NCBI GenBank assembly: GCA_050011535.1
Contig: JBEKIX010000005.1
Coordinates: 1,347 to 65,346 of the forward strand
Direction: 5' to 3'
Length of the DNA stretch: 64,000 bases
DNA from: Acidobacteriota bacterium
GTDB taxonomy: Bacteria; Acidobacteriota; UBA6911
The position numbers and the translations under genes were made by a program. This document shows positions 5,649 through 42,468 of the stretch, piece by piece. The notes beneath the pieces were generated by a model. The model was given only the letters and a program-made list of their open reading frames with translations. It was not told where the DNA came from and ran no database searches. Each line of letters starts with the position of its first letter. The first letter of the stretch is position 1.

Positions 5649-5798
5649 CATAGCGCATAGGTAAGCCACTTCGTTCGTGGACCTGGACCTAAACCTCGAC
5701 CTGGACTTCGACGATCTTGTATTCGATACACTCGCGAATGTCCACGTCTACGTCCAGGACCAGGTCCAAGTCCAGGTCCACGTGCGGGGGGCTTATTT
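5649..5798. repeat. hexamer-periodic foldback repeat, copy A
   Basis: Leader CATAGCGCATAGGTAAGCCAC, arm (GACCTG/GACTTC)x6, central ATTCG..CGAAT mini-hairpin, then the inverted arm (GTCCAC/GTCCAG)x7 ending CACGTG, with a GGCTTATTTA tail. Lies between the S9 stop and the CocE start. Confidence 0.7.
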
Positions 5799-7826
5799 AC
5801 TGCTTTCCTTCGCAGGAACTTCGGGCTTGGCAAAGTCTGGAAGCGGATCGCCCCATAAGTAATGGTTGAACCATGACAGGTTGTGCTTCATCACGGCGCG
5901 AATCGATTTGGGCTTTGTGATACCGTGGCCGTAACCTTTGTAAACGACCATTTCCACTTTCACCCCGCGATTCAATAGGCCCAACCTGAGTTCATAGCCA
6001 TTCGGCGTCGGCACCCGCTTGTCCAGCTCTCCGTGCTGGATCAGAGTCGGTGTGCGCGCATTCTTGATGTACGTCATCGGGGAAGTCTTCTGATAAATCT
6101 CGGGGTCCTCGATAGGATCGGCGCCAAGGTAGTTCAATGTGAAGTCGGTGATATCGGTGTTGTAGTAATACGTCGCCCAGTCCGAGATCCCGGCGCCTAC
6201 GGAGATGGCCGCAAAGCGATCCGATGACGTGGTGAGGAACGCCGAGATGTATCCGCCCTCGCTCCATCCCATGCACGCGACCTTGGCCGGATCGACCCAC
6301 CCTTTGCCGATCAGATAGTCCACGCCGGAGATGACGTCCCAGGAATCCCCGACGCCGAGATTCCGCACATTGAGCATTCGGAATTTCTCTCCGTATCCGG
6401 AGCTCCCCCGGTAATTCACTTTGAGAATCAGCGCCCCGCGGCCTGCCCATATGTCCGCGGGATAGTAGCGGGTATCCGGCGTAAGCAGCACCGGACGATC
6501 GACTCCCGTCGGGCCGCCATGGATGATGCACAACAGCGGATACTTCCTGGCCGGGTCGAAATTCGCGGGTTTGATCAAGATGCCTTCAATAGCGGCGCCG
6601 TCACGACTTTTCCATGAGATGACCTCACGCGTGCCCAGAATGAAGTCTTTCGCCTGATCGGTCATATTCGTGAGCCGGCGGGGAGCGAAGTTCTGAACAT
6701 CAGAGACCATGACCTCGCCCAGCGCGCTCGGAGATGCAATCACGAGACCCATCCGCTTTCCGTCCCGTGTGATCGAAAATGCCGATCCGATCAGACTGTC
6801 CGGAACCGTGATCCTCGAAATGTTCCCTGTCGTAGGATCAACCCGGAACAAGTGCGATGCTGTTTTCTGTGCTCCCGAGAAAAAAATGCCGCCGGCGTTC
6901 CATGCCACGAATCCCGGATTTTCGTCGAAGCCGTCGGTAATCGAACGGGGCGTGCCTCCCTCGGCCGGCACAACGGCCAGCCGTGTATTTTGCGCGAATT
7001 GTCTCGCATTGCCCATGGCGCTGGAAAAAACAATCTGGCGTCCGTCGGGCGACCAGTGGGGACTGTTGTCCGGGCCCGGCGAGGAAACAATCTTCTTCAC
7101 CGCGTCGTCAGCCAGATTCAGGACATAGATGTCGGCAGTATTTCCTTGCGTCAGGTCCGGATTCACCGTTGCGCCGAAGGCGATCTTCGTGCCGTCGGGC
7201 GACCAGGAAAAAGAGCCGACGGTAAAATCACTGCCGCGCGTATGTTGTTTGCCGGCCGTTGCCGCGCGCAGGGCTTCCGCCACATCCACGACCCAAAGGT
7301 GAGTGTAGTTGTACTCTTCCCGCACCACCTCGTAATCGTCGTAATATTCCTTGCGGTCCTTCATGTACTGCGACGTGGTATCCGCGGCGCTGTAGGCGAT
7401 CTTCGTGCCGTTCTCAGACCAGGCGAAGCCGCTGACACCCGTTTCCGACTTGGTCAGCTGAACAGCTTCACCGCCGTCGGGGTGAATCATGAAGATTTGA
7501 TTTTTGTCTCCAACGCGGGCGCTGGTGAATGCCAGCCAGGTTCCATCCGGAGACCACTGCGGACTGGATGCGCCCTTCTCCCCTTGTGTCAATTGCCGGC
7601 TGGTACCCGCGCCGGCATCGGCTATCCAGATCTGAGTGACGAAGGCATCCTGCTTGAAGTCCGTTTCGCTGACCACATAGGCCACGTACTTGCCGTTCGG
7701 GGATATCTGGGCCGCGCCGACGGATTTCACCATCAGCAGGTCGTTGATTGTGGGAATACGCGGCGCGTCCGCACTTAAGGCGAGAGATCCACCCAGCAAG
7801 AGAAAGATCAAGGCGCGCGCAGTCAT
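5793..7826 (-). CDS. S9 family peptidase (prolyl oligopeptidase/DPP-like) with N-terminal TolB-like beta-propeller
   Basis: Signal peptide, then repeated 'SPDG' WD40-like (PD40) blades, then the C-terminal GWSEGGY nucleophile and HGELDKRVP..GHG catalytic residues. Confidence 0.88.
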   Translation of the reverse strand: MTARALIFLLLGGSLALSADAPRIPTINDLLMVKSVGAAQISPNGKYVAYVVSETDFKQDAFVTQIWIADAGAGTSRQLTQGEKGASSPQWSPDGTWLAFTSARVGDKNQIFMIHPDGGEAVQLTKSETGVSGFAWSENGTKIAYSAADTTSQYMKDRKEYYDDYEVVREEYNYTHLWVVDVAEALRAATAGKQHTRGSDFTVGSFSWSPDGTKIAFGATVNPDLTQGNTADIYVLNLADDAVKKIVSSPGPDNSPHWSPDGRQIVFSSAMGNARQFAQNTRLAVVPAEGGTPRSITDGFDENPGFVAWNAGGIFFSGAQKTASHLFRVDPTTGNISRITVPDSLIGSAFSITRDGKRMGLVIASPSALGEVMVSDVQNFAPRRLTNMTDQAKDFILGTREVISWKSRDGAAIEGILIKPANFDPARKYPLLCIIHGGPTGVDRPVLLTPDTRYYPADIWAGRGALILKVNYRGSSGYGEKFRMLNVRNLGVGDSWDVISGVDYLIGKGWVDPAKVACMGWSEGGYISAFLTTSSDRFAAISVGAGISDWATYYYNTDITDFTLNYLGADPIEDPEIYQKTSPMTYIKNARTPTLIQHGELDKRVPTPNGYELRLGLLNRGVKVEMVVYKGYGHGITKPKSIRAVMKHNLSWFNHYLWGDPLPDFAKPEVPAKESSK

Positions 7827-7942
7827 CGCAGGTCCTCCCCTTTTCAATTGGGGACAGGCCCCCTTTTGTCGCCATTAGCTGGCAAATCCGCCCAAATACT
7901 CCCGGCGACAAAAGGGGGCCTGTCCCCAATTGAAAAGCATTA

Positions 7943-9124
7943 TTATGACAGAATCAATTTGGCGATTGTCTGAAGCTGCATGTTGGAAGTGCCTTCGTAG
8001 ATCTTCCCGATCTTTGCGTCCCGATAAAACTTTTCCGCCGGAAACTCCTTGGTGTACCCATAGCCGCCGAACAGCTCCAGGCTCTGGCTGCAAACCATCT
8101 CCGCCGCTTCCGAAGCGAAGAGCTTGGCCATCGCAGCCTCTCTGGTGAAAGGACGATTGGACATGCGCAGCCGGGCGGCGTTATAGACCATGAGACGCGC
8201 CGCTTCCAGTTCCGTTGCCATGCGGGCAATCTGGAACTGAGCACCCTGGAAATTCGCAATCGGCTGGCCGAATTGCTTGCGCTCTTTCGAATATTGGATA
8301 GCGGCCTCAAGAGCACCCTGGGCTACGCCAATCATCTGCGCGCCGATGCCGATCCGTCCTTCGTTAAGCGTCTCAATCGACACCTTGTATCCCTTGCCGA
8401 CATCTCCGAGCACTTGCGCGGCCGGCACGAAACACTCCTCGAGAACCAACTCGCAGGTCGAGCTGGCGCGAATTCCCAGCTTGTCTTCCTTTTTGCCGAT
8501 GGTGAAGCCGGGTGTGCCGCGTTCAACCATAAAGGCGGTGATGCCCCGATAACCGGCCTGCGGATTTGCGTTGGCGAAAATGATGAAGAAATCAGCCTCG
8601 CCTGCATTGGTGATCCAGAGCTTGCGTCCGTCGAGCACGAAACCGCCATCACGTGCCGTGGCGCGCGTCGCGAGCGCGAAGGCATCGCTGCCGGAGCCGG
8701 CCTCGGAAAGAGCGTATGACCCGACGATGTCACTGCACAGCCGCGGAAGGTACTTGCGCTTTTGGTCCTCAGTTCCCCAGCGCAGCACGGCGTTGCAAAC
8801 GAGCGTGTTCTGCACATCGACAAGGACACCCACCGACGCGTCCACTCGGGATAGTTCCTCGACGGCTTGTACCGCCATGAAAAAGCTTCCGCCTCCGCCG
8901 TACGCTTCCGGCACGCCGACTCCCATCAGGCCCAGTTCGAAAAACTGCCGGACCAGATCGGGATTCATTTTTGCGTCACGATCCATCTGGCTGACGTGCG
9001 GCCGGATCTGTTCCTCGGCAAACTGGCGGACACTGGTCCGAAAAAGCTGTTCTTCTTCCGTAAAGACGGTCAGCGGCAATGCTCCGCTGTCAGTTTCAGG
9101 CATTTGGGCAGCCATGGGAGTCAC
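7943..9124 (-). CDS. acyl-CoA dehydrogenase
   Basis: ACAD N-terminal, middle and C-terminal domain motifs (YALSEAGSGSDA, GGYGYTKEFPAEKFYRDAKI). Confidence 0.9.
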   Translation of the reverse strand: MTPMAAQMPETDSGALPLTVFTEEEQLFRTSVRQFAEEQIRPHVSQMDRDAKMNPDLVRQFFELGLMGVGVPEAYGGGGSFFMAVQAVEELSRVDASVGVLVDVQNTLVCNAVLRWGTEDQKRKYLPRLCSDIVGSYALSEAGSGSDAFALATRATARDGGFVLDGRKLWITNAGEADFFIIFANANPQAGYRGITAFMVERGTPGFTIGKKEDKLGIRASSTCELVLEECFVPAAQVLGDVGKGYKVSIETLNEGRIGIGAQMIGVAQGALEAAIQYSKERKQFGQPIANFQGAQFQIARMATELEAARLMVYNAARLRMSNRPFTREAAMAKLFASEAAEMVCSQSLELFGGYGYTKEFPAEKFYRDAKIGKIYEGTSNMQLQTIAKLILS

Positions 9125-9229
9125 CTCGGTTGTAGATGTTGCGTTTCAGCAAGGTTTATACCACCAGGATCGGAACACATCCACTATAACTTGCAGACCC
9201 ACTGACGCATGAAAGTGCAGTTTGCCGTA

Positions 9230-9335
9230 TTACCCCTTGTGTCATGGCTCGTGGTCGTGATCGTAGTCGTGATGGGTTTTTTGCGTTCCGTACACCACCA
9301 ACTACGATTACGACCACGATCACGACCACGACATT
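9230..9335. repeat. divergent hexamer-periodic foldback repeat, copy D
   Basis: CCGTATTACCCCTTG leader-like segment, then GTCGTGGTCGTGATCGTAGTCGTGATG, a loop, and the inverse ACTACGATTACGACCACGATCACGACCACGAC. Same GTC-NN-R 6-bp periodicity as copies A-C. Confidence 0.55.
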
Positions 9336-9517
9336 CGTGGAAGGGGCAGTTTTCAAAGGAGTGCAAAGGCGAGCGGGATGAAAATTGCGGGAACGCGAGG
9401 TGCCTCTCTGTCGTTAAAAGTGCGGGAGATTCTGGCACCACGGATTCCAATCCTGAAGGGGAGACGGGAAAAATCGATCGTGCTACTGTATCGATCGTAA
9501 TTGAGGCGTGGGTGTGA

Positions 9518-9546
9518 ATTGACACCCTCCGGGACAAAACCTATAA
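9518..9546 (+). promoter_or_regulatory. sigma70-type promoter of the GWxTD gene (TTGACA-17-TATAAT)
   Basis: Perfect -35 TTGACA (9518-9523) and -10 TATAAT (9541-9546) with a 17-bp spacer, about 35 nt upstream of the start. Confidence 0.6.
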
Positions 9547-9579
9547 TCTAGCAGTAAGAATCCATCCTCAGGAGTAATT

Positions 9580-11283
9580 GTGGTGACCAAACGAACTATC
9601 GACATCAGGTTTTACTCGCTGCTGTTCGCTTTGGGAATAGCCTCTTTTCTGTATGGTGCGCGGCAGCCGGGTAAGGGTTCCGATCAGCAACAGGCCAAGA
9701 CCGACGGCCAGTCCCAGACTCAGGTGCCTCCGCCTCAGCGGCCCCCCGCAAAGCCCAAACAAAAGGCTGAGAACACGTTGGACAGCCATTACAAAAAGTG
9801 GCTGGACGAAGACGTGCGCTATATCATCACGCCGGAGGAGAAAAATATTTTTAAAGCACTCACCACCGACGAAGAACGTGAAAACTTCATCGATGGATTC
9901 TGGGCCCGAAGGAATCCGGACCCGCGCGAGCCGACCAATACGTTTAAGATAGAGCACTATCGCCGAATTCTCTATGCCAACGAGCATTTCGCCTCCGGGA
10001 TCCCCGGGTGGAAAACGGATCGTGGGATGATCTACATCATATACGGCGAACCCGATGGAAAAGAATCGCACCCCTCAGGCGGCAGTTATCAGCGCGAGTT
10101 CTGGGAAGGCGGCGGCGAAACGAGCGTATATCCGTTCGAGCGCTGGCGCTATCGTCACATAGATAATGTCGGTGATGATGTCGAGCTCGAATTCGTGGAT
10201 AAGACGATGACGGGCGAATATCGGCTTACCTCTGATCCGGAAGAGAAGGATGCTCTTCTGAACGTCCCGAACGCGGGATTGACCGATAACGAGCAGATGG
10301 GCCTCAGTCAGAAATCGGACCGCGTCAACTACGGCTATCAGGATCAAACCAACTTCCAGCGCTCCAAGGACGCGCCGTTTGAGCGCATGGCGCGCTACTT
10401 CAACGTTCAGCGCCCGCCGCAGATTAAGTTCACGGACCTCAGGAGCCAGGTAAACATCCGCATTTTCTACAATCAGCTTCCTTACACGTTGCGAACCGAT
10501 TTTATCAAGCTCTCGCAGGACCAGGTGCTGGTGCCGATCTCCATTCAGTTGGACAACAAGGACCTCCAATTCAAGAAGGAGATGCAATTCAATCGAACCA
10601 ACGTCCATGTTTACGGTGTAGTGAGCAGCCTGACGGGCAACGTCATCGCCGAGTTCGAGGACGATATTCACTCTGAGTATACGGACGAGACCTTCCAGCA
10701 GGGAAAAACCAAGCAGTCCATCTATCAGCACATCGTGCGGCTGCAGACCGGGCAGCGCTACAAGCTGGATTTGATTCTTAAGGATATAAACGCCGGCACC
10801 GCCGGCTCGATGAGCTATATGATCCCGGTCCCGAAATTCGATGGAGATGCACTGCAGTCCAGCAGCGTGATCCTGGCGAACGCAGTCTCGACGGTCGCTC
10901 CGACCTACGACCGGCTGGAGCAGTTTGTGATCGGGGACATGAAGGTGCAGCCGAACGTCAAGTCCGAGTACGTCAACGGGCAGGCTTTGATTCCGTATCT
11001 GCAGGTTTACAATGTCGCGCTCGATCAGACCACGCTTGAACCGTCGCTGCAGATTTCTTACACGATCAAATCCGGCGATACGATCGTGAAAGACGTCGAG
11101 GACATGAAGGGAAGATCGGCTCAATTTGTTTCTGGCCAGCGGGTTGTCATTGTGAGTGGTTTCCCGATCAAGGATATGGCGCCCGGCAAATACACCTTGG
11201 AAATCAAGGTTCTGGACAAGATTTCCAACAAGACGCTGATCATAAGCGCTGCGTTCCAGGTGATGGGCTCCTCTGGAACATAG
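9580..11283 (+). CDS. GWxTD domain-containing protein (PEP-CTERM/exosortase-associated family)
   Basis: Contains the GWKTDRG motif and a conserved DxRYIITPEEKNIF / FWARRNPDP region. GTG start with AGGAG RBS and signal-anchor. Confidence 0.8.
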   Translation: MVTKRTIDIRFYSLLFALGIASFLYGARQPGKGSDQQQAKTDGQSQTQVPPPQRPPAKPKQKAENTLDSHYKKWLDEDVRYIITPEEKNIFKALTTDEERENFIDGFWARRNPDPREPTNTFKIEHYRRILYANEHFASGIPGWKTDRGMIYIIYGEPDGKESHPSGGSYQREFWEGGGETSVYPFERWRYRHIDNVGDDVELEFVDKTMTGEYRLTSDPEEKDALLNVPNAGLTDNEQMGLSQKSDRVNYGYQDQTNFQRSKDAPFERMARYFNVQRPPQIKFTDLRSQVNIRIFYNQLPYTLRTDFIKLSQDQVLVPISIQLDNKDLQFKKEMQFNRTNVHVYGVVSSLTGNVIAEFEDDIHSEYTDETFQQGKTKQSIYQHIVRLQTGQRYKLDLILKDINAGTAGSMSYMIPVPKFDGDALQSSSVILANAVSTVAPTYDRLEQFVIGDMKVQPNVKSEYVNGQALIPYLQVYNVALDQTTLEPSLQISYTIKSGDTIVKDVEDMKGRSAQFVSGQRVVIVSGFPIKDMAPGKYTLEIKVLDKISNKTLIISAAFQVMGSSGT

Positions 11284-11412
11284 AACCCAGGCTCAGACGC
11301 AATTCTGTAATGTTCGCTCGGGCAGGGGCGCGGCGTGCCGTGCCCCTGTTCTCATTTGGGGACTGTGTCTCGTCAGTTCCTCCCCGGATAAACTCAAACG
11401 AAGCGGTCGCCG

Positions 11413-12393
11413 ATGAACGTATCTGTCGTCATCCCAACATGGAGAGGCCGAAACCTGCTGGAGAGTTACCTCCCGTCTGTACTGCACGCGGCTGTTTTTT
11501 ATGAAAAACAAACCGGCTGTGAAACCGAAGTCATCGTAGTGGAAGATGCGGGCGGCGACGGCACACCCGATTGGCTGAGAGGCGCGTACCCAGACCGGGT
11601 TCGTGTCATGGAGCACGACTACAACAAGGGATTCGCCGCGGCCTGCCAGACTGGCTTCGAAGCCGCGCGCTACCCGGTCGTGTTGCTCCTCAACAACGAC
11701 GTGCGTCTGCGTCAGGATTGCATAGAACCGCTCGTGGCACATTTCGCCGGTGCCGGGATGTTCGCAGTCACCGGCAAGCTCTTGAACCAGGGGGAAGAGA
11801 CCTTCTGCAACGGCGGCAAGGTGGCTCGTTTCCGCCGGGGCATGTGGAGCACCTACCAGAATTACGACCTCCTTCCCGGCGCCGGTCGGACCCAGCCGTT
11901 GCTTTCCTTCACCGCAATCGGTGCCTTCTCCGCTTATGACCGCGCCCGGTTTTTGGACCTCGGCGGGTTCGATCCGCTTACCGCAATGGTAGAGGACGTC
12001 GAGCTTTCTTATCGGGCGTGGAAGCGCGGCTGGACTATCGAGTATGAGCCCCGCAGCATCGCGTATCACGACGCGAGCCAAACCATGGACCGGCGTTATC
12101 GACGCCGGGCGCTCGACAAGATTTCGCGCCGGAGCCGCATCCTCATGCACTGGATGCTGCTGCACGATCCGCGAATGTTCCTCCGGCATCTCGCGTCGAT
12201 AGCGATCCGCATTCTGACGAGCTGGCTGGTCCTCGACTGGCGCTTCTATTGGGCGATTTGCACCGGCTTGGCCCATCTTCCCGCGATTCTGAAAAAGAGG
12301 CGCGCGACGCGCCGGACTATGACTCGGACGGATAAGGAACTGCTCGACATGCTTCAGCGCTTTTACCAAACAGCCCCGATTGCGCTACACTAG
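11413..12393 (+). CDS. family 2 glycosyltransferase
   Basis: MNVSVVIPTWRG ... DAGGDGT ... LLNNDV shows the GT-A fold DxD region. Confidence 0.85.
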   Translation: MNVSVVIPTWRGRNLLESYLPSVLHAAVFYEKQTGCETEVIVVEDAGGDGTPDWLRGAYPDRVRVMEHDYNKGFAAACQTGFEAARYPVVLLLNNDVRLRQDCIEPLVAHFAGAGMFAVTGKLLNQGEETFCNGGKVARFRRGMWSTYQNYDLLPGAGRTQPLLSFTAIGAFSAYDRARFLDLGGFDPLTAMVEDVELSYRAWKRGWTIEYEPRSIAYHDASQTMDRRYRRRALDKISRRSRILMHWMLLHDPRMFLRHLASIAIRILTSWLVLDWRFYWAICTGLAHLPAILKKRRATRRTMTRTDKELLDMLQRFYQTAPIALH

Positions 12394-12399
12394 GCCCCC

Positions 12400-13149: not shown

Positions 13150-13172
13150 CAGACAGCTGTCTGTCACCGATT
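13141..13172. terminator. 32-bp perfect palindrome AATCGGTGACAGACAG|CTGTCTGTCACCGATT overlapping the GT2 stop
   Basis: Seen directly: 16-bp perfect arms with no loop, followed by TTCTG. Acts as a terminator or a protein-binding dyad. Confidence 0.5.
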
Positions 13173-13196
13173 TCTGTATGGCAGGATAGGTCTTAT

Positions 13197-14631: not shown

Positions 14632-14649
14632 AAGAGACCGGAGACGCTC

Positions 14650-16131
14650 ATGAGAATCGAGTTCCAGCCCAATAACTTTTCCGACGTCGAATGTGACCTG
14701 CTGGCCCATCCTGTATTTGAAGACGAAGCCCGCGATGGAACCTCCCTCCGGGCGCTGGACAACGCCACGAAAGGCGTGGCGTGTTCGGTGCTTTCCTCCG
14801 GTGAGTTCAAGCCGGAGCTGCACCATACATGTCTCATCCACCGTCCGGCACGGATCAAGGCGCAGCGCCTGCTTCTCGTGGGCGCGGGAAAAGAGCGTGA
14901 ATACACACTTGCCAGGCTGAGGGAAGTGGCGGGCACCGCCGTCCGCGCCGCCCGCACCGCGCATTGCGGGAGCGTCGCGCTCTGGCTGCGCAGGACCATC
15001 ACGGCGCCTGAAGCGATCCGCGTCGCGGCAGAAGGCGGGCTGCACGGCAATTACGAGTCTGAGATCTACAAGACCCGCGAAGTCGAAACCCAGGAAGTGG
15101 AACGGCTCATCCTTCTCAGTGAGCGCAAGATGCGACGGGGCGAGGTGAATGAGGGAATTCGCAGGGGAACCATCATCGGCAACGCCGTGAATTTTGCGCG
15201 CACGCTGGGAAACGAGCCCGCGAATATCCTGACCCCGGCCCGGCTCGCGGAGCGGGCGCTGGCGGAGGGTGCCAGGTCCGGTCTCGAGGTCCAGGTCCTC
15301 GAGCGCGACGAGATGGAAAAACTCGGAATGAACGCCCTGCTCGCGGTAAGCCGCGGCAGCGAGCAGCTGCCCAAGCTGATCCTCCTGCGCTTCCCGGGCA
15401 TGAAACCTCAGAAGAAGACTCCTTGTTTTGCTCTCGTCGGCAAAGGCGTCACGTTCGACAGCGGCGGGATTTCCATCAAGCCTACGGAAAAAATGGAGGA
15501 CATGAAGGCGGACATGTCCGGGGGCGCTGCCGTGATCGCCGCCATGAGCGCGCTCGCCGAACTCGGGTCGCAGCGCCCGGTTATGGGGCTGATTCCAGCC
15601 GTGGAGAATCTGCCGAGCGGCAGCGCAACCAAGCCGGGAGACGTAGTGAAGTCCTTCCTCGGAAAGACCATCGAAATCATCAACACCGATGCCGAAGGCC
15701 GGCTGATCCTCGCCGATGCTCTAGCCTATGCGCGCACGCTCGGCGCCAACCGCCTGATCGACATCGCGACCCTGACCGGAGCTTGCGTGGTGGCGCTGGG
15801 CCACATCAACGCTGGCATGATGGGAACGGATCTGGAAACCCTGGAGCGCCTGAAATCGGGGAAAAGCATCACCGGCGAACGATTCTGGCCGCTGCCGCTC
15901 GACGACGAGTACCGGAAGGTGATCCGCAGCGAAATCGCGGACATCAAGAACATCGGCGATCGCTGGGGTGGCGCCATCACTGCGGCGAAGTTCCTGCAGG
16001 AGTTCGTCGAGGACACACCGTGGGTGCACCTGGACATCGCCGGTGTCGACCTCGATCACGACGGCCAACCCTTTGCGGCCAAGGGTGCTACCGGCTTCGG
16101 CGTCCGCTCCCTCATCCAGCTCTTTACGTGA
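14650..16131 (+). CDS. pepA: leucyl aminopeptidase (M17)
   Basis: NTDAEGRLILADALAYA signature and the VGKGVTFDSGGISIKP metal-binding motif. Confidence 0.93.
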   Translation: MRIEFQPNNFSDVECDLLAHPVFEDEARDGTSLRALDNATKGVACSVLSSGEFKPELHHTCLIHRPARIKAQRLLLVGAGKEREYTLARLREVAGTAVRAARTAHCGSVALWLRRTITAPEAIRVAAEGGLHGNYESEIYKTREVETQEVERLILLSERKMRRGEVNEGIRRGTIIGNAVNFARTLGNEPANILTPARLAERALAEGARSGLEVQVLERDEMEKLGMNALLAVSRGSEQLPKLILLRFPGMKPQKKTPCFALVGKGVTFDSGGISIKPTEKMEDMKADMSGGAAVIAAMSALAELGSQRPVMGLIPAVENLPSGSATKPGDVVKSFLGKTIEIINTDAEGRLILADALAYARTLGANRLIDIATLTGACVVALGHINAGMMGTDLETLERLKSGKSITGERFWPLPLDDEYRKVIRSEIADIKNIGDRWGGAITAAKFLQEFVEDTPWVHLDIAGVDLDHDGQPFAAKGATGFGVRSLIQLFT

Positions 16132-16197
16132 GGGGGTCGTACCTTCAAAATTCAATTTTCCCCACCAAATATTGGATTTTGAAGGTACGACCCCCTC
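16130..16197. terminator. 22-bp perfect inverted repeat hairpin (loop 24 nt) at the pepA stop
   Basis: GAGGGGGTCGTACCTTCAAAAT ... ATTTTGAAGGTACGACCCCCTC with perfect complementarity. Confidence 0.6.
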
Positions 16198-16245
16198 ACA
16201 ATTGGAATTATTTAAACCACTGGAGTCGTTTCGGCGTCTATATCT

Positions 16246-24673: not shown

Positions 24674-25030
24674 CCTCTTGCTGCTGTGCCGCGCCTTCGG
24701 CGCTCCTTTCAGAGGCACGCGCAATTCCCGGCCTGACGGCCGGGCCTATTTATTGCCGGCCCTTCGGGCCTCATCGTGAATTGAATCAGATGGGCGCTAT
24801 CGCAATGTCGTCTTCCGGAAGCTCGGCCAATCCGAATGCTTCGCGGCATACGCTGATGGCCGCAAGCCCAGGCGCGAAGCGCCGGCAATGAATAGCCCCG
24901 CGCGTGAGCGCGGGGTTAGGGAGATTTTTGCGACGAGGCCCAAAGGGCCGGCACAATATTTTCGCCTACGTCTAGGCCCGCAATGACCGTAGAAGGTGCA
25001 GGGCAACCCACCGCACCCCAAAGGCTCTGC

Positions 25031-35250: not shown

Positions 35251-35256
35251 GTTTCA

Positions 35257-35880
35257 CTATTGAGTGGCGCCTTCGTTGGTTTTTAGCCGGATATTGCTGG
35301 CGACAACCACCTGTGCCGGCCTGAGCAGGTGGTCCTTGAAAAGATAGCCGCGCCTAAGTTCCTCGATGACCGTATTGTCTTCGAATTCCAGTGTTTCCTC
35401 GCGAGTCAACGCCTCATGAAAATGGGGATCGAATTTGTGCCCTTTGGCTTCGATGGGAATTACCCCCAGACGGCTAATAGTATCGACCAGCTGTTTGTAG
35501 ATGAGCTCCACACCTTCCCGATATTTCCGCAAGGTTGCCGCCTGTCCGGTCTCTTCCTGGAAGCTTTTCAACGCCCGTTCGCACCCATCTAGGATTGGCA
35601 AGAATTCCTCGATTACCGAGCTCATCACCAGCGTCGTCGTCTCCGCGCGCTCTCGATCGCTGCGCTTGCGGTAATTCTCAAATTCGGCCGCTTTGCGCAG
35701 AAATCGGTCTCGCCACTGATCCGCGTCGGCTTTTGCTGCCGCCAGGTCTGCCTGGAGCTGCACCGACTCGTCCTCCCGGGTTCCCTGCGTCCCGGAATCC
35801 GACTCATCCGACACGGCGGCCTTCTGTTCAGGAGCCGCCTCAGGGACGTCCGGCACATTGTTGGTCATCTTCGAAGTCAT
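35257..35880 (-). CDS. grpE: nucleotide exchange factor GrpE
   Basis: Coiled-coil N-terminus and C-terminal GrpE beta-domain (GHKFDPHFHEA). Confidence 0.93.
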   Translation of the reverse strand: MTSKMTNNVPDVPEAAPEQKAAVSDESDSGTQGTREDESVQLQADLAAAKADADQWRDRFLRKAAEFENYRKRSDRERAETTTLVMSSVIEEFLPILDGCERALKSFQEETGQAATLRKYREGVELIYKQLVDTISRLGVIPIEAKGHKFDPHFHEALTREETLEFEDNTVIEELRRGYLFKDHLLRPAQVVVASNIRLKTNEGATQ

Positions 35881-36947
35881 ACTCGCGTTCCTTCACTGCC
35901 CATGACACGGCCAAAAATCCTGGCTACATATTCGACCAGGGATATGGCCCGGGCATATTCCATGCGGGTAGGACCCAGAATCCCAAGAGATCCGATGGTC
36001 CTTTCATCCACGACATACCTCGAGGCGATCAGCGTGCAGTCCTCCACGCCGGGAAGAGCGTTTTCAGTTCCGATCGTGATACGCACCTCCTGGGTGTCGC
36101 CATGTATGCATTCGGATATGAGGGTCGCCAGCCGGCTCCTATGCTCGATGGTCTCAAAAAGGACCCTCATCCTTGTAATATCGGAGAACTCAGGATTCTT
36201 GATTAGATTTGAGGCGCCATCCAGATAAACCTCGGATTCGGATTCTTCGGCAGTCTCCGAGAAAGTCTCGGCGCTCAGCAGGATCACGCGACGTACAAGC
36301 TGGTCGTAGCGCGCCTTCTCCTCCCGTATCATTTTTGACAATAGCAATTTGATCTCTTTGAGCGTCTTATCTTTGAAGTGGTCGACGATGTAGCGCGCCG
36401 CCTGATCGAGTTCCGTCTGGCTGAACTCCTCTGTGGGATGGATGACTCGGTTTTGCACGATTCCCGACTTCGATACCAGGATGATCAGGATCCGATTATC
36501 CGACAGCTTCATGAACTGGATGTGTTGGAGTGCCACTTGGCTGATGGGGGGCGAAACCACGATTCCCAGGTTTTGAGACACATGAGAAAGAACCTGGCAA
36601 GTGCGCGTCATGAGCTGATCCGGGTTGTCTTGCGACATCAGGCTGCGATCGATCAACTGGCGTTCCCCAAGCGAGATCTCCTGCTTTTCCAGCATATAAT
36701 CGACATAGAGGCGGTAAGCCTTGTCCGTCGGAATTCGCCCGGCAGAGGGGTGCGGTTGACGCAGATAGCCCATCTCCTCCAGGTCCGCCATGATATTGCG
36801 CACCGTGGCAGGGCTCAGATGCTCGTGGCTCCGGCGGGCGACGGTGCGGGAACCCACCGGCCTACCCGTGGCTACAAAGGTCGAGATCGCCCATTGGAGG
36901 ATCTCGCGAGATCGTTCATCGAGGCTAAGGCCGGGTTTGGCATCCAT
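35877..36947 (-). CDS. hrcA: heat-inducible transcription repressor HrcA
   Basis: N-terminal winged helix (RSREILQWAISTFVATGRPVGSR) and C-terminal HrcA domain. A 4-bp overlap with grpE. Confidence 0.93.
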   Translation of the reverse strand: MDAKPGLSLDERSREILQWAISTFVATGRPVGSRTVARRSHEHLSPATVRNIMADLEEMGYLRQPHPSAGRIPTDKAYRLYVDYMLEKQEISLGERQLIDRSLMSQDNPDQLMTRTCQVLSHVSQNLGIVVSPPISQVALQHIQFMKLSDNRILIILVSKSGIVQNRVIHPTEEFSQTELDQAARYIVDHFKDKTLKEIKLLLSKMIREEKARYDQLVRRVILLSAETFSETAEESESEVYLDGASNLIKNPEFSDITRMRVLFETIEHRSRLATLISECIHGDTQEVRITIGTENALPGVEDCTLIASRYVVDERTIGSLGILGPTRMEYARAISLVEYVARIFGRVMGSEGTRV

Positions 36948-37045
36948 AAGATATTGACCGATTTCAATTTCCTCGGATTTTCCCGCTTGGGCAGCGGTGG
37001 TAGCGAGATATGTCCACTCTATCTCCAGACTCCTCCCACGGAAAC

Positions 37046-37073
37046 ATTATAATATGCCACAAGTCAAAGTCAA
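37046..37073 (-). promoter_or_regulatory. sigma70-type promoter of the hrcA operon (TTGACT-16-TATAAT)
   Basis: The minus strand reads TTGACTTGTGGCATATTATAAT about 100 nt upstream of the hrcA start. Confidence 0.55.
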
Positions 37074-37126
37074 CCAAGCCTTTATCTGCGGTCGAGATAC
37101 TGCAACTACAACCCGGGGAGCATGTC

Positions 37127-37295
37127 CATAAGCGCTAACTTAAGCCGTTACCCCCACCTGGACTTGGACCTAGACTTGGTCTTGGACTTGGACGTTCTTG
37201 TGCTAGACACATTTTCGAGAACCTCCTGCTTGGGAAACTTCACGTCAGGAAGGATAGTCCACGTCCACGTCGAGGTCCAAGTCCACGTCGAAGAG
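37127..37295. repeat. hexamer-periodic foldback repeat, copy B
   Basis: Leader CATAAGCGCTAACTTAAGCCGTTACCCCCAC, arm (CTGGAC/TTGGAC)x6, GTTCTTG-N15-CGAGAAC mini-hairpin, inverted arm (GTCCAC/GTCGAG/GTCCAA). Sits immediately upstream of the hrcA promoter. Confidence 0.7.
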
Positions 37296-37353
37296 CTACA
37301 GCGAGCATATCTTGGCGCCGAGATGAGCTTACGCCCTGAGCTGCTGCTACTTT

Positions 37354-38343
37354 CTAAAACTGAAACTCCGTTCCTATACCTCGTCTGGCAGCTTCGTCGA
37401 AAACGGCTTTGGCGGCCGAGACATCCTGGATTGCCAATCCCACGGATTTGAAAAGTGTGAGATCTTCCGCCGATGTTCTTCCGGGAACCTTACCGAGGAT
37501 GACATCTCCCAGATCGCCGGCGACCTTATCCCAAGTCCATGTACCTTCTTGTGCTGGGATCAGGAAATCCCCAGCCTCGGCTTTGCAGGCCGCCGTGAGA
37601 TCGCACACGATCCGGCTGCGATGCACGGTGAGCGTGTCGAGCTCGCGCATCTTCGGGGTATGAGAGCCAATGCCGTTGATGTGCGTCCCGTTTCTGAACC
37701 AGCTGCCCTCGACGATCGGTTCCGAGGCGCTCGTGGCAAGCACCACGATCTCCGCCTGTCGCACGGCCCCGGCTGGATCGCGTGCCAGTTCGACGGGGAC
37801 TCCGGTTTTTTCCGTGACCTTGCGGGCAAAAGCCAGCCGGGCATCTTCGGAATCCACCGACCAGACCAACAGCTTGCGGAGTGGCCTCGCCTCGTGAATC
37901 GCCAGCACCTGGGTAAATGCTTGCACTCCAGAGCCGAAGATCATGCCGACGCTTGCCTCCGGTCTGGCCATGTATTTCGTGGCAACGCCGGCGACGGCGC
38001 CTGTACGCATGGCGGTGAGGAACCCGCCGTCCATTATTGAAATGGGAAATCCCGTATCCTCATCGAGAAGGAGGATGGTTCCCAGCACCGAGGGCAGGCC
38101 GTGCTTTTTAACATTGTCCTTGTAGACCGTCACCACTTTGGTCCCGAGGGCTCCCAGGTTTCGAATGTACGCGGGCATAAATAGCGCCAATCCAGCCTTT
38201 TCGGGCAGTGCGATCGGCGTGCGCTGCGGCATGGAGGCATCGCCCTGAGCAAGGCCGGCGAACGCTTTTTCCACTGCCTCCATGCACATCTTCATTGTGA
38301 AGAAGCTCTCCATTTCCTTGCGCGACAGAAGTAGGGTTTTCAT
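37354..38343 (-). CDS. ornithine cyclodeaminase/mu-crystallin family protein
   Basis: Rossmann GSGVQA motif and an OCD-family N-terminal region. Confidence 0.85.
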   Translation of the reverse strand: MKTLLLSRKEMESFFTMKMCMEAVEKAFAGLAQGDASMPQRTPIALPEKAGLALFMPAYIRNLGALGTKVVTVYKDNVKKHGLPSVLGTILLLDEDTGFPISIMDGGFLTAMRTGAVAGVATKYMARPEASVGMIFGSGVQAFTQVLAIHEARPLRKLLVWSVDSEDARLAFARKVTEKTGVPVELARDPAGAVRQAEIVVLATSASEPIVEGSWFRNGTHINGIGSHTPKMRELDTLTVHRSRIVCDLTAACKAEAGDFLIPAQEGTWTWDKVAGDLGDVILGKVPGRTSAEDLTLFKSVGLAIQDVSAAKAVFDEAARRGIGTEFQF

Positions 38344-38430
38344 GGCACCTCCGAAACGATTGAAGGGTGACGATTGACGAATGCCGGGCGACGGGTTCCT
38401 GCATCATCACCCGTCATTCGCCACGATTGA

Positions 38431-39633
38431 TCAGGCTCGAGCGTGCTTGCGGCCGTGCTGGGTCATGAACTTTTCCAGCCGGTCAAACGCCTCTTCCAGA
38501 ATCTCTTCCTGGGGGAGAAAAACGATCCGCATGTGGCGGGTACCTGGCCGTTGGCCGAACCCGCCGCCGTGCACCACGACCACTCCGGTCTCCTGGATAA
38601 GATCTCCAACGAATTCCTCGTCCGGCTGTTCGATGTGAAGACGTGGAAAGGCATAAAAGGCAGCCGTCGGCTTCACACAGGAAATGCCGGGTATGGCGTT
38701 CAAGCGGCGGTGGGTGATGTCGCGCCGGCGGCGGAGCTTCGCCTTCACTTCCGCAAGGTGATCCTGAGGACCTTCGAGCGCCGGCTTGACAGCATATTGC
38801 AGCGGTGTCACCGCGCACAAACGGGCTCTGAGACACTTGTTGACGGCCTCGATGTACTCCGACATCATCGCTTGCTTCCCTGTCACGATCGCCCAGCCGA
38901 TGCGGAACCCGGGCACCAGGTAACTCTTGGCAAGTCCGTTAAACGTGACTATTGGCGCCTCATCCGAGAGCGATGCGATCGAAATGCTGTCCTCGCCGTC
39001 AAGCACCAGCTTGTCGTAGATCTCGTCCGAGAAGATCATGAGATTGTGCTTCAGACTGAGGTTAACGATCTCCTCGAGGACCTCCCTCGAGTACCTGGAG
39101 CCGGTAGGATTGTTGGGGTTGATCAGAACCAGGGCACGCGTTCGCGGGGAGATCTTTTTCTTCATATCGGCAATATCCGGTTCCCAGTTGTTCTCCTCGT
39201 CGAGGTAATAGGGAACGTTTTGCGCCTGCAGTTTCCCGAGAACGGCCGTGTAAAGCGGATACCCCGGAGACGGCGTCAGTATCTCGTCCCCCGGATTCAG
39301 CAAAGCCGTCAGGCAAAGCTCGATGCCTTCGGAGGCGCCGGAAGTGACGAACAGATCGAGCCAGCTCTTGATTCCCTTTCGTCTGGCGGCATTGCCGATC
39401 GCGTCGCGAGCTTCCTGGACCCCTGACGAATTTGCATAGCCCGTGTGATTATCGAGCAGCGCTTTATAGCATGCTTCGATCATGTGCGGCGGCGTTTTGT
39501 AGTCGAACACCATCGGGTCGCCGATGTTGAGATAGAGGAGCTGCTTTCCTGCGGCTTTCGCCTGTTCCGCTTTTTTCAAAATGTCGCGAATCGCGTATTC
39601 GACTTTTTGCGTGCGCTCCGCAGGATGGATCAT
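38431..39633 (-). CDS. pyridoxal-phosphate-dependent aminotransferase (class I/II, AlaA-like)
   Basis: NPNNPTG and SLSKSY-like (GLAKSY) PLP lysine motifs. Confidence 0.9.
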   Translation of the reverse strand: MIHPAERTQKVEYAIRDILKKAEQAKAAGKQLLYLNIGDPMVFDYKTPPHMIEACYKALLDNHTGYANSSGVQEARDAIGNAARRKGIKSWLDLFVTSGASEGIELCLTALLNPGDEILTPSPGYPLYTAVLGKLQAQNVPYYLDEENNWEPDIADMKKKISPRTRALVLINPNNPTGSRYSREVLEEIVNLSLKHNLMIFSDEIYDKLVLDGEDSISIASLSDEAPIVTFNGLAKSYLVPGFRIGWAIVTGKQAMMSEYIEAVNKCLRARLCAVTPLQYAVKPALEGPQDHLAEVKAKLRRRRDITHRRLNAIPGISCVKPTAAFYAFPRLHIEQPDEEFVGDLIQETGVVVVHGGGFGQRPGTRHMRIVFLPQEEILEEAFDRLEKFMTQHGRKHARA

Positions 39634-39838
39634 CGGAATCTCCTTCTAGATGGCCCCATGGGTACGCTATCCGCAGCGGATCTTGAGCAGCACCGGGGCG
39701 ATTGAAGGCTCAGCATAGCCCTTTCAAACGGCAATTTCAAATCACGTGTCAAAACTGGGGGTGCGCATTGCGAGAGGGCTGTGACGCGCGCCAATTTTTG
39801 ACTGAAAGGGAATCTGCCAGCAGGGAGGAAGGAGATGA

Positions 39839-39886
39839 TTTCGGATTGCAGGAATTGGGAATGAACCCAAAATCCGCAATCCGAAA
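39839..39886. terminator. hairpin with an 11-bp perfect inverted repeat TTTCGGATTGC ... GCAATCCGAAA just 3' of htrA
   Basis: Seen directly. The loop contains an additional AAATCC/GGATTT-type sub-repeat. Confidence 0.45.
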
Positions 39887-39906
39887 TCGAAAACCCGAAT
39901 TGGATC

Positions 39907-41529
39907 CTATGGCATTACAATACTCGTGTAACCAGTCGAGGTGGCGGGCTTGCCGAAGGCGTCCATTGCGATGCGCCCGGAGGCATCCATTGGAACGCGG
40001 AGGATCTTGAGAATCACCGCCTGGCCGCTCTTCAGACCTTTGAGAATATCCAGGAGGTCCTGCGCGACCTCGATCTTTTTGCCATTGGCCGTCTGGACGA
40101 TGTCGAAATTTCCTGCCTGATTTCGCTGCCCTACGAGCCCGGCATCCTCTGCCAGGCTTCCCGGGCTGACCGAAACCAGTAGCGCGCCACCGGAAATATT
40201 GAGACTCTGAGCAAGGCGCGTAGGAACGTTGTCGATGTTCATGCCGATTTCGGTCTTGGGTTCTGCCTTCGGCTCGAAGCTGATGCCTTGCTTCGCCTGT
40301 TCCTGGAGGGGCCTCTCTGCCAGTGTCACACTGAAGTCCTTGACCGTCCCGAAGCGCACGGCCTTGACATTGACGGTTCGCCCCGGCGGGGTGTTCGCGG
40401 CGGCGAGGCGAAGCTCCTGGACGCTTGTTATTTTCTTGCCATCAAATTCGATGATCACATCCTCGGGCTTGATTCCCGCTTTGGCGGCAGGGCCGTTCTC
40501 TTCGACCAACCCCGTGATGAGCACGCCCTTGCCCTGCTTCACGCCGAAGTAGTCGGCCATTGCCGGAGTAAAGGGAAACTCGATGTTCATATTCACGCTC
40601 AGATATCCGCGGCTGACTTTCCCTTTTTCCAGGATCTGGTTGTAGACTTCTACGAAAATGTGCGCCGGCACGGCGAATCCCACTCCAGCATTGGCGCGGT
40701 TCGTCGTGTTGATGAAGCTGTTGATGCCGATGACCTCTGCGTTCATGTTGACCAGAGGGCCGCCGCTGTTGCCCGGGTTGATGGCCGCATCCGTCTGCAG
40801 ATAATCATTGAATAGCATTTGTTGTTGATCCGCGCTCTCGACACTTTCAAAAACGCGGCCGATGGCGGAGACGATGCCGGCGGTGACGGACTGTTCCAAT
40901 CCGAAGGGGCTGCCGATCGCGATGACCCAGTCGCCGACCTTCATTGCTCTCGAGTCGCCGATCTTCACATAGGGAAATTCCTTGTCGCCGTCGATTTTGA
41001 TGACGGCAATGTCCGACAGCTCGTCGCCTGCGATGACTCGCGCCTGGTATTCCTTTCCGTCCTTCACATTCACTTTGATCTTGGTCGCATCCGCCACAAC
41101 GTGGTTATTGGTGATGATATAACCTTTCGGATCGACGAAGATCCCGGAACCAAGGCTGCTGAGGGTACGCTGTTGCTGAGGCGCGTTGGGAAACATTTGC
41201 CCGAACCAATCCGGCATCTGTTGGTTGTTTCGCCCTGACCCTCCGGGGCGCGTCGTGAACGAGATGACGGCCTCGGTATTGATGTTGACCACGGCAGGGC
41301 CGACTCTCTTCGCGACTTCCTCGAACGCCTGCGACATAGCCTGGATTCCCGGGTTTGCCAGGGACGTCCCGCCGCTTTGGATTTTGAGCTGGCTGTCCCC
41401 TGGCCCCATGGCTATGGCTCGATGGGATATCAAAGTTCCAATCCCAATCCCCAGACACAGAACGAATAGGACCACGAAGAATGAAACCAGATGTTTTGAC
41501 AGGCGCTGTTCGCGCGCTTCGTAGGTCAT
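39907..41529 (-). CDS. htrA: Do/DegP/HtrA family serine endoprotease with two PDZ domains
   Basis: His/Asp/Ser triad context (TNNHVV; DIAVIKI; GNSGGPLVN) and two PDZ domains. Confidence 0.93.
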   Translation of the reverse strand: MTYEAREQRLSKHLVSFFVVLFVLCLGIGIGTLISHRAIAMGPGDSQLKIQSGGTSLANPGIQAMSQAFEEVAKRVGPAVVNINTEAVISFTTRPGGSGRNNQQMPDWFGQMFPNAPQQQRTLSSLGSGIFVDPKGYIITNNHVVADATKIKVNVKDGKEYQARVIAGDELSDIAVIKIDGDKEFPYVKIGDSRAMKVGDWVIAIGSPFGLEQSVTAGIVSAIGRVFESVESADQQQMLFNDYLQTDAAINPGNSGGPLVNMNAEVIGINSFINTTNRANAGVGFAVPAHIFVEVYNQILEKGKVSRGYLSVNMNIEFPFTPAMADYFGVKQGKGVLITGLVEENGPAAKAGIKPEDVIIEFDGKKITSVQELRLAAANTPPGRTVNVKAVRFGTVKDFSVTLAERPLQEQAKQGISFEPKAEPKTEIGMNIDNVPTRLAQSLNISGGALLVSVSPGSLAEDAGLVGQRNQAGNFDIVQTANGKKIEVAQDLLDILKGLKSGQAVILKILRVPMDASGRIAMDAFGKPATSTGYTSIVMP

Positions 41530-41854
41530 GCCCTTACCTCCCTAAAGTTGTTGCATACGCTCAACATTTTACGTGAAACTCCAGGGGTAGTTCCAAACTT
41601 AATTAGAGGCGCGGCGATTCAGACAGTGACGAGCCCCCCAAAGCGAGGACCCGTCCACAGCCCAAAGTGTGAGCCCCATAAGCGCTAACTTAAACCACTT
41701 CCCCCACGTGGACCTGGACATGGACCTAGACGTGGACTTGGACGTTCTTGTACGGGAGACATTTTCAAGAACACCTGGTCACGCATATGAGCCTTCTTAG
41801 CATATATGTATCTGTATGCATGCAACGTGATACAATGCTATCAGGAGGTGACGT

Positions 41855-42073
41855 ATGGGTACAGCAATATCGGTGAGGCTTCCCAAAGAGCTGGCGGAGC
41901 AGCTTGACCACATCGCCAAAGAAACCGAGAGGCCGCGTTCGTACATCCTTCAAAAGGCTCTCGAATCCTACATTGAAGACTATTCCGATCTTCAAATAGC
42001 CCTCGACCGTCTTCTTGATAAAACGGATCCGGTGGTTTCCAGTAAAGAACTGAGGAAGTCTCTTGGCTTATAA
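41855..42073 (+). CDS. type II antitoxin, ribbon-helix-helix (RelB/ParD/CopG-like)
   Basis: ISVRLPKELAEQLDHIAKETERPRSYILQKALESYIE is an RHH DNA-binding fold. AGGAGG RBS, and an extended -10 TGATACAAT upstream. Confidence 0.8.
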   Translation: MGTAISVRLPKELAEQLDHIAKETERPRSYILQKALESYIEDYSDLQIALDRLLDKTDPVVSSKELRKSLGL

Positions 42074-42323
42074 TATTGTTTATAAGACATCCGTCGAGCG
42101 CGACCTCAAGAGTCTCTCAAAGGTAGAAGCCGCAAAAATCCTCGCTAAGATCGAAGGCGGACTCGCCAGGAAGCCAGAAACATCTCCGGTACTCAAAGGA
42201 CGCTTCATTGGCCTCCGCAAATATCGCGTCGGCGATTATCGGGTGATTTATGCCATACTCGGTGACGATGTTTTGATTCTCAGGATTGGTCACCGGTGCG
42301 AAGTTTATCGGCGCAAGATCTGA
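42063..42323 (+). CDS. type II toxin, RelE/ParE family
   Basis: GLRKYRVGDYRVIYAILGDDVLILRIGHRCEVY is the RelE/ParE C-terminal signature. An 11-nt overlap with the antitoxin. Confidence 0.85.
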   Translation: MAYNIVYKTSVERDLKSLSKVEAAKILAKIEGGLARKPETSPVLKGRFIGLRKYRVGDYRVIYAILGDDVLILRIGHRCEVYRRKI

Positions 42324-42468
42324 CAATCGCGGTCCAGCGAGAGCGCGCCGCCTGAAGCAGGATCACATCCAAGTCGAAGTCCACGTGCCGTAGCAATCTT
42401 ATGTTAGCACTCGTGGGGCTCGTGCCCTGTCGCCGTGTTATGCTTGTCCTGGACCCTCGAGTGACGAC

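Follow-up and report, generated by a model that had tools for sequence, protein, structure and literature searches.

Opposed hexamer arrays in probable non-autonomous IS186/IS421-type elements of an acidobacterial genome

Foldback elements in a 64-kb genome segment

A stretch of 64,000 nucleotides from contig JBEKIX010000005.1 of an Acidobacteriota bacterium (assembly GCA_050011535.1), referred to here as the window, carries three elements, A, B and C, in which direct reading reveals a block of NTGGAC hexamer units, a loop and then a block of GTCCAN units. A fourth foldback, D, is built from different hexamers (Table 1). Because the two arrays are opposed across the loop, the entire interior of such an element is one long foldback. 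With up to two mismatches, GGACNTGGACNTGGAC is found 27 times in the window where 0.41 matches are expected, and 25 of these 27 lie inside A, B or C. Repeat finders recovered the arms with periods of 6 and 12 nt. The 17-mer CATAAGCGCTAACTTAA occurs exactly only twice in the window (0.05 expected), in the leaders of B and C, and these two elements align over 97 nt with 82% identity. The terminal inverted repeats (TIRs) and the complete relatives with perfect target duplications described below bear out the preliminary description in its view of a dispersed family as opposed to chance low complexity. The hairpins of A, B and D were matched by no shuffled sequence, either as RNA (z scores of -3.5 to -8.5) or as DNA (-3.8 to -5.3), while C, for which a long hairpin had also been assumed, is split by genes. 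The four had further been taken as copies of one family with a common leader of about 30 bp and a mini-hairpin, GTTCTTG-N15-CAAGAAC. Opposed arrays indeed unite A, B and C, whereas D has another hexamer and neither leader nor mini-hairpin. The leader is shared by B and C and is only degenerate in A (CATAGCGCATAGGTAAGCC), and of the two mini-hairpins that of C matches exactly, that of B with a single mismatch. The inverted array was said to end in CACGTG, which that of B does not.

Neither A (about 157 bp) nor B (199 bp) contains a long open reading frame (ORF) or a transposase gene, and the only ORFs of C are those of a ParE-family toxin and a ribbon-helix-helix (RHH) antitoxin. C is not the 736-bp repeat it was first taken for; it is a foldback whose two halves are split by the toxin-antitoxin operon (41855-42323) that occupies the loop. 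An exact look-up of the ParE toxin, made for the cassette elsewhere, matched this one locus only. Since the ParE/RHH genes lie between two ends of the insertion sequence (IS) type discussed below, C appears by its design to be a mobile insertion cassette.

Table 1. Positions of the foldback elements and their parts in the window
Feature	Coordinates	Strand	Remarks
Element A, degenerate copy, best-preserved hairpin	~5649..5805	+	
A arms	5676-5713 / 5745-5782		82% complementary
Element B, probable complete non-autonomous IS186/IS231-type miniature element, ~199 bp	37127..37325	+	Between the stop of the ornithine cyclodeaminase (OCD) gene and the hrcA sigma-70 promoter (37073-37046)
B left TIR CATAAGCGCTAACTTAAGCC	37127..37146	+	Exactly the ends of L141, L255 and E. 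coli IS421; fits the IS231-subgroup signature
B left array, 6 NTGGAC units	37158..37193	+	
B mini-hairpin GTTCTTG...CGAGAAC	37194..37222	+	Kept in C, L166, L176 and L205
B right array, 6 GTCCAN units	37257..37292	+	85% complementary to the left arm
B right TIR, degenerate, TCTTGGCGCCGAGATG	37310..37325	+	Read against the right end of L176, ATCTTATCTTGGCGCTTATG
Element C, same type as B with toxin-antitoxin operon in the loop, 739 bp	41677..42415	+	
C left TIR CATAAGCGCTAACTTAAACC	41677..41696	+	
C left array, 6 units	41708..41743	+	
C mini-hairpin GTTCTTG-N15-CAAGAAC	41744..41772	+	
RHH (CopG-like) antitoxin, 72 aa	41855..42073	+	Pfam PF01402 RHH_1, precomputed annotation
ParE-family toxin, 86 aa	42063..42323	+	Pfam PF05016 ParE_toxin
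C right array remnant ATCCAAGTCGAAGTCCACGTG	42367..42387	+	
C right TIR ATCTTATGTTAGCACTCGTG	42396..42415	+	15 of 20 bases as in the right end of L176; reverse complement CACGAGTGCTAACATAAGAT
Element D, GTGGTC/GTGATC/GTAGTC foldback	9249..9331	.	25-nt arms 92% complementary; fold z = -5.8

Terminal inverted repeats and relatives of the elements

The leader is better understood as an outer end. Scanning metagenome contigs with the pattern CATAAGCGCTAASWTAARCC extended the search beyond the window and returned at least 119 loci, including two complete array-bearing elements, L176 and L190. In nearly all of the matches listed, the motif forms the outer end of a discrete element and is matched by an inverted copy at a distance of 112 bp to 5 kb; among them, the pair bounds dozens of unrelated miniature transposable elements with inverted repeats (MITEs) of 112-720 bp, many of them without hexamers. 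Two elements, L141 (1354 bp) and L255 (1334 bp), hold a single ORF between their TIRs, of 375 and 385 aa respectively, that scores 145.8 and 151.1 bits on the NCBIfam model NF033592 for IS4 family transposases (cutoff 115) and also matches Pfam DDE_Tnp_1. This transposase family comprises more than 6000 protein clusters at E < 1e-20, and its nearest named plasmid relatives, at 33-36% identity, are annotated as "IS4-like element IS421 family transposase". IS421 itself is found in 2221 of the 5426 complete genomes of E. coli; one E. coli copy has the ends CATAAGCGCTAACTTAAGGGTTG, which agree with the leader in the window over 18 nt without a difference. Within the IS4 family, the IS231 subgroup is defined by the end signature CAT-------AA--TAA and by direct repeats of 10-12 bp (PMC2266710 Table 1), and the left ends of B and C fit this signature. 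Since the leader sequence bounds transposase-bearing elements, equals the ends of IS421 and fits the subgroup signature, it is the TIR of an IS186/IS421-type insertion sequence (IS4 family, IS231 subgroup).

The flanks of the metagenomic relatives point in the same direction. In 37 non-redundant TIR-bounded elements among the matches listed, perfect target duplications measure 11 bp in 12 cases and 10 bp in three, in agreement with the direct-repeat length of the IS231 subgroup, and the sequences duplicated follow the pattern GGG-N5-CCC or CCC-N5-GGG (GGGCTGCGCCC for the autonomous L141). Hexamer arrays stand next to the TIR in 6 of 121 matches listed. L176 (306 bp) and L190 (216 bp) are complete elements of the B/C type with symmetrical ends, in the order left TIR, linker, arrays, mini-hairpin, loop, arrays, linker and right TIR, and both are flanked by perfect 10-bp duplications (GGCTCACGCC and GGCTGAAGCC). 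The mini-hairpin reads GTTCTT...GAGA(A/G)C in L176 and has a variant form in L190. When both ends of B, C, L176 and L190 are aligned from the outside, the 18-nt TIR is followed by a linker of about 12 nt and by CAC directly joined to GTGGAC, which gives a common anatomy of an 18-20 bp TIR (CATAAGCGCTAACTTAAG), the linker, CAC and 4-8 NTGGAC units. Of 25 columns compared between the left end of A (CATAGCGCATAGGTAAGCCACTTC) and the TIR and linker of L190, 20 agree, among them the 11-mer TAAGCCACTTC. Both ends of A are degenerate, and the stop codon of the upstream S9 peptidase (5793-5795) falls within its right end; it is very probably a decayed member of the same element type as B and C.

B and C are missing from orthologous regions in relatives. 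Nine same-species contigs retrieved by HrcA look-ups have the same structure as the window. In three more distant relatives, L127, L128 and L129 (HrcA identity 85, 83 and 80%), the order GIY-YIG, HtrA, aminotransferase, OCD and HrcA is kept. The OCD-hrcA spacer measures 242-290 bp in these three versus 406 bp here, aligns over the hrcA promoter only and lacks B, and the GIY-YIG-htrA spacer measures 177-632 bp (177 bp in L129) versus 940 bp and lacks C together with the toxin-antitoxin genes. B and C are lineage-specific. These absences hold at the level of lineages, as the flanks in the relatives are too diverged for a base-exact empty site. Within the species, all contigs open to comparison carry B and C in identical form, with no polymorphism in unit number. 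Some metagenome contigs break exactly at the left edge of C, as is expected of a repeated sequence.

An empty site for A was also considered, but the comparison is confounded, since a 95%-identical relative lacks the whole S9 peptidase gene as well as A. Compared with positions 11150-11300 of L263, which represents this relative, positions 5560-7960 of the window contain about 2.3 kb of extra sequence, consisting of the S9 peptidase gene and A. The ribosome-binding site (RBS) and first six codons of the S9 gene (ATGACTGCGCGCGCCTTG) belong to the S15/CocE peptidase in L263, the S15 gene of the window starts at a new position, and each junction of the segment bears a copy of GCCTTG. Either a gene was inserted, or short repeats mediated a deletion.

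The TIR resembles half of a CIRCE (controlling inverted repeat of chaperone expression) operator, and the right end of C reads TTAGCACTC. A reading as CIRCE operator was rejected, as the full operator, TTAGCACTC-N9-GAGTGCTAA, is not found anywhere in the window with up to three mismatches. The region upstream of hrcA (36947-37130) has a near-consensus sigma-70 promoter at 37073-37046 and no canonical CIRCE, despite the presence of hrcA-grpE-dnaK-dnaJ here.

Taken together, it is highly likely that B, C and the decayed A are non-autonomous derivatives of IS186/IS421-type elements of the IS4 family, B as a MITE and C as a cassette, with the hexamer arrays as passenger. The earlier suggestion of MITE-like mobility is supported by TIRs, perfect duplications in relatives, a cognate IS4-family transposase and absence at orthologous sites. 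DDE transposases of the IS4 family act by cut-and-paste. By analogy, mobilisation would occur in trans: a cognate DDE transposase encoded elsewhere would bind both ends, excise the element and paste it into a GGG-N5-CCC-like target, which would generate the duplication of 10-11 bp.

D stands apart. It has no IS186-type end or leader and no mini-hairpin, and it seems to be a separate GTCGTG-type foldback of like architecture. In the relative with a 95%-identical Acd protein, both flanks of the locus are kept and about 330 nt of unrelated sequence replace D. An ORF of 102 aa (9209-9517, plus strand) spans the element, its left arm reading as a Val/Ile-rich hydrophobic stretch and its right arm as Arg/Pro-rich; since unrelated sequence takes its place in that relative, it is probably not a gene.

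The hexamer foldback and its possible roles

Only the 18-20 bp TIR is common to the autonomous elements L141 and L255 and to B and C; the former have no hexamer arrays. Likewise, among the matches listed, the interiors of most MITEs with this TIR are of quite another kind, the most frequent type starting with GATTCTGATGCC. For these two reasons, the arrays are passenger sequence and not transposase binding sites. A scan for the foldback itself (TGGACNTGGAC-N50-80-GTCCANGTCCA, one genome per species) returned at least 117 loci, of which about 34 are expected by chance according to our own estimate and about 65 are true two-armed arrays of 3-29 units. Foldbacks were found in Acidobacteriota, Myxococcota, Planctomycetota, environmental Chlamydiae and Desulfobacteraceae, while viral contigs gave only chance matches to the foldback and none to the TIR. 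Autonomous copies, recognisable by long-range TIR pairs, were not seen among the foldback loci listed.

In Acidobacteriota, the foldbacks form discrete subfamilies of 230-260 bp elements, each with its own ends. One subfamily has the ends TAATGCCGCATACTTT with imperfect 10-11 bp direct repeats of the GGCG-N3-CGCC type and fits the IS4 subgroup, for which the signature -AATR--------WTW and repeats of 10-13 bp have been reported (PMC2266710). Two subfamilies have the ends (T)AGTTTCTGTCGCGAAACTC and short flanking direct repeats, for example TAGATA. L098b is a chimera, with IS186-type TIRs outside an interior that still bears one AGTTTC-type end. NTGGAC foldback families with their own conserved flanks occur in Thermoanaerobaculia and in one Planctomycetota metagenome-assembled genome (MAG). 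Foldbacks of Myxococcota have no conserved flanks and usually start 1-30 nt past a stop codon, and in MAGs of Chlamydiae and Desulfobacteraceae the TGGAC/GTCCA motif recurs at a spacing of 6-11 bp. An interior shared with a TIR1-type family was considered and dropped: the loop of A is weakly similar (p = 0.002-0.014), those of B, C, L176 and L190 are not.

Two further palindromes of the window deserve mention. One of 71 bp (57343-57413) has outer arms, AGTTTTTGTCGCGAAAC, that equal the ends of two hexamer-foldback MITE subfamilies of other Acidobacteriota; its core is GTAG-tagged and free of hexamers. The other (16128-16199) has 32-nt arms that are 94% complementary (GTGAGGGGGTCGTACCTTCAAAATTCAATTTT ...).

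The arrays themselves look changeable. Unit number varies between otherwise near-identical copies, and the arms can be very unequal, with lengths 2-4 fold apart in some. Very long or very unequal arms, up to 29 versus 6 units, are seen in some copies of Thermoanaerobaculia and Myxococcota (L029 6518-6741, L040 7178-7359 and L016 2217-2300), which points to rapid one-sided expansion. The common unit variants TTGGAC, CTAGAC, GTCCAA and GTCTAG can be read directly as transitions from CTGGAC/GTCCAG. The arrays change through gain and loss of units and through transitions. We found no description of opposed NTGGAC arrays in the prokaryotic literature, either by sequence or by description. The interior therefore appears to be undescribed, while the element class, MITE or mobile insertion cassette, is already known.

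Several observations weigh against the derivation of the window elements from IS186/IS421-type insertion sequences, or leave part of them unexplained. No target duplication is recognisable at A, B or C, the right ends of all window copies are decayed, although those of B and C are still recognisable, and no cognate transposase was found within the window. Given the decayed ends and the lack of clean duplications, mobility is deduced from the relatives; these two features and the identity across contigs of the species suggest that the window copies are most likely fixed, immobile fossils. MITE biology also leaves unexplained why foldbacks recur in MITEs with two other end types, why families in Thermoanaerobaculia and Planctomycetota have flanks of their own and why flankless copies often follow stop codons in Myxococcota. 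To accommodate the foldback within an IS-derived origin, one might tentatively regard it as a self-perpetuating structural module that is tolerated between genes and repeatedly re-armed with new IS ends. It could persist since it is harmless between genes, and in a very short element it may hold both ends close together; against such a role in end adjacency, most MITEs with this TIR manage without a foldback. The distribution also leaves some room for a different, clearly less probable account, in which the NTGGAC/GTCCAN foldback is a cross-phylum entity with its own function or propagation, such as an array for a TGGAC-binding protein or a strand-symmetric hairpin, that was captured by at least three types of IS ends in Acidobacteriota and stands free in Myxococcota.

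A structured RNA is one candidate for such a function. The elements could act as intercistronic stabilisers, RNase III sites, insulators or terminators without a U tract, and selection for that role would then account for their spread. The folds are very stable, and as a consequence of the palindromic design either strand yields the same 5'-(NUGGAC)n...(GUCCAN)n-3' RNA. Owing to G-U pairs, three of them in one unit of A, the gene-sense (minus) strand of A and B gains 4-5 kcal/mol in folding over the other strand, and the G-rich arm comes first in every case seen, including the three cases in about 0.8 Mb of loci chosen without regard to arrays. Gene context, however, shows no significant bias. 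Of 50 elements, 31 lie between co-directional, nine between convergent and ten between divergent genes (p = 0.23 versus random), and the sense strand folds better in just 13 of the 31 co-directional cases. As the first gene caller misassigned some strands (e.g. in L001), strands were called a second time from local G+C content at third codon positions (GC3), which gave 18 co-directional, 14 convergent and 5 divergent cases, with a better sense strand in 7 of 18. By this call, the Myxococcota copies with their position 1-30 nt past stop codons lean towards convergent genes (12 co-directional, 11 convergent, 3 divergent; p = 0.08). The succession of unit variants along one arm is reflected in the opposite arm no better than in shuffled sequences (mean z = -0.05, n = 46), A being an exception, and many arms are unequal or have periodic mismatches. 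No terminator-like site was called at A, B, C or D, and none of them has a U tract. At gathering thresholds, Rfam matches in the window only Acido-Lenti-1, away from the elements, and A and B match nothing credible at E values up to 10. Furthermore, TIRs and target duplications already account for the spread. Together, they speak against an RNA role tied to one strand as well as against any selection for exact pairing, so that the regulatory function once envisaged finds no backing and a structured RNA seems unlikely. The foldback may reflect microsatellite dynamics that are neutral within a tolerated palindrome, it may play a strand-symmetric structural part, or its arrays may bind a protein.

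The Acido-Lenti-1 matches (RF01687; 38.9 and 52.7 bits, gathering threshold 37) are two motifs facing each other across 98 nt within a single intergenic region, at 24726-24771 on the plus and 24870-24915 on the minus strand. The pair looks like the two ends of another small palindromic element.

That the arrays are binding sites for a protein that recognises TGGAC/GTCCA, for example a small RHH-type, nucleoid or partition-like protein, or serve in titration like DnaA boxes, with the inversion reflecting protein geometry, would agree with the way in which the motif is kept while its spacing shifts: in the MAGs of Chlamydiae and Desulfobacteraceae (L012, L078, L083, L085, L088 and L095), one arm repeats (A/G)TGGAC every 6-11 bp and the other GTCCA(Y). 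It would also agree with arms that do not co-vary unit by unit and can differ 2-4 fold in length. Some units of Desulfobacteraceae read TGTCCACA and are near to the high-GC DnaA box, TTGTCCACA; the acidobacterial units CTGGAC and TTGGAC fit this box poorly. Foldback loci have no recurrent specific neighbour gene that might encode such a protein; the genes that do recur, sigma-54 activators, Ser/Thr kinases and aminoacyl-tRNA synthetases, all come from large families of paralogues, and we regard a binding array as improbable.

Other known classes of repeats were compared as well. The units are contiguous 6-mers in two inverted blocks, which sets them apart from CRISPR arrays, where direct repeats of 24-48 bp alternate with unique spacers. 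Repetitive extragenic palindromes (REPs), with palindromic units of 20-40 bp, and the hairpin-forming REP doublets (REPINs), which are moved as single-stranded hairpins by tyrosine transposases (RAYT or TIRYT, of the IS200/IS605 type), come closer, as here too the whole element is a hairpin. Acidobacteria possess TIRYT genes and repeated TIR families, the TIRs of their tyrosine transposases having the motif GGGGWSAS (PMC3733652), and a palindrome of the window at 7840-7937 carries this motif. The ends of B and C, though, are of the IS4-family (DDE) type, no GTAG or CGTC tag flanks the arms, and no Y1 transposase was seen near any copy. Y1 transposases make no target duplications, whereas duplications of 10-11 bp exist in this family. 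A REP/REPIN origin is very improbable and, for B and C, already largely refuted. The preliminary description had already set the elements apart from REPs and bacterial interspersed mosaic elements (BIMEs), CRISPR and ordinary terminators, and the missing tags, the contiguous 6-mers and the lack of terminator calls and Rfam matches sustain this distinction.

The palindrome at 7840-7937 has perfect 34-bp arms (CTTTTCAATTGGGGACAGGCCCCCTTTTGTCGCC ...) and is located between the acd stop and the RBS of the S9 peptidase gene; it is GGGGACAG that fits GGGGWSAS. At this spot, the 95%-identical relative has a different palindrome of 45 bp.

Finally, the arrays could encode short peptides, (Val/Leu-Asp)n in one arm and (Val-His/Gln/Glu)n in the other, or be relics of such coding. 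Every unit follows the pattern S-T-S-S-A-S, which is codon-like on both strands, and canonical units are free of stops in all six frames, so that arrays could be tolerated inside genes in the manner of Rickettsia palindromic elements. In L080, a Planctomycetota MAG, a 19-unit array (2650-2900) is in frame with a Ser/Thr kinase catalytic-loop sequence (HRDLKPANIMLGEHGE-ADLDLDLD...), and L176 has a small ORF behind an AAGGGGG motif. This idea has to be set against the common variants CTAGAC and GTCTAG, which bring in TAG, the lack of a conserved start codon or RBS, ORFs that are not conserved between copies and the absence of the ORF across D from the 95%-identical relative. With frames, starts and RBS all unconserved, a coding function was rejected as barely credible.

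Through the derivation from IS186/IS421-type elements, a repeat class at which assemblies of abundant peat Acidobacteriota break can be named and delimited. IS186/IS231-type ends, once thought to be nearly confined to a few lineages, would be the driving force behind many and varied MITEs and cassettes of bacteria in soil and sediment, including a cassette that would move a toxin-antitoxin pair. Should a protein or RNA role stand behind the foldback, it would be a new, widespread element of genome architecture; otherwise it would represent microsatellite-like dynamics inside bacterial transposons.

Comparison with known systems

REP, BIME and REPIN sequences are also abundant intergenic palindromes that often occur as inverted pairs forming larger hairpins; they differ by their GTAG/CGTC tags and their link to RAYTs, while the elements described here have DDE-type ends and target duplications. 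MITEs of the Correia/NEMIS, ERIC, RUP and BOX type are likewise short, TIR-bounded and intergenic and can fold into a single long hairpin, and several affect mRNA once they are transcribed (PMC3733652). Their interiors are unique sequences and not two opposed tandem arrays with a 6-bp period. Such arrays have a counterpart in Drosophila: the foldback (FB) and Galileo elements are reported to have long inverted arms of short tandem repeats in variable number and an optional central cargo, as seen here. These eukaryotic elements have arms of kilobases, compared with 25-110 bp here, and the repeats of Galileo hold binding sites of its transposase (THAP), whereas the autonomous IS elements in our case are free of repeats.

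Among bacterial elements, C resembles the MIC231 mobile insertion cassettes and the IS231-derived modular elements of the Bacillus cereus group, in which ends of the IS231 subgroup enclose passenger genes and other DNA with no part in transposition (PMC2266710). A foldback of hexamer arrays is lacking in MIC231. Mobilisation of MIC231 in trans is reported to have been shown by Chen and colleagues in 1999. Another close system is IS186/IS421 of E. coli. It differs in that the window elements have no transposase and an acidobacterial host and contain a hexamer foldback that is absent from IS421 and its autonomous relatives. IS186 prefers GC-rich targets of the GGG-N5-CCC type, and relatives of the window elements likewise have 10-11 bp duplications at such sites. 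The DDE transposases of their autonomous relatives from metagenomes fall under the same NCBIfam IS4 model and are 33-36% identical to the IS421-type proteins, and the TIR CATAAGCGCTAACTTAAG of IS186/IS421 is identical over 18 nt to that of the window elements.

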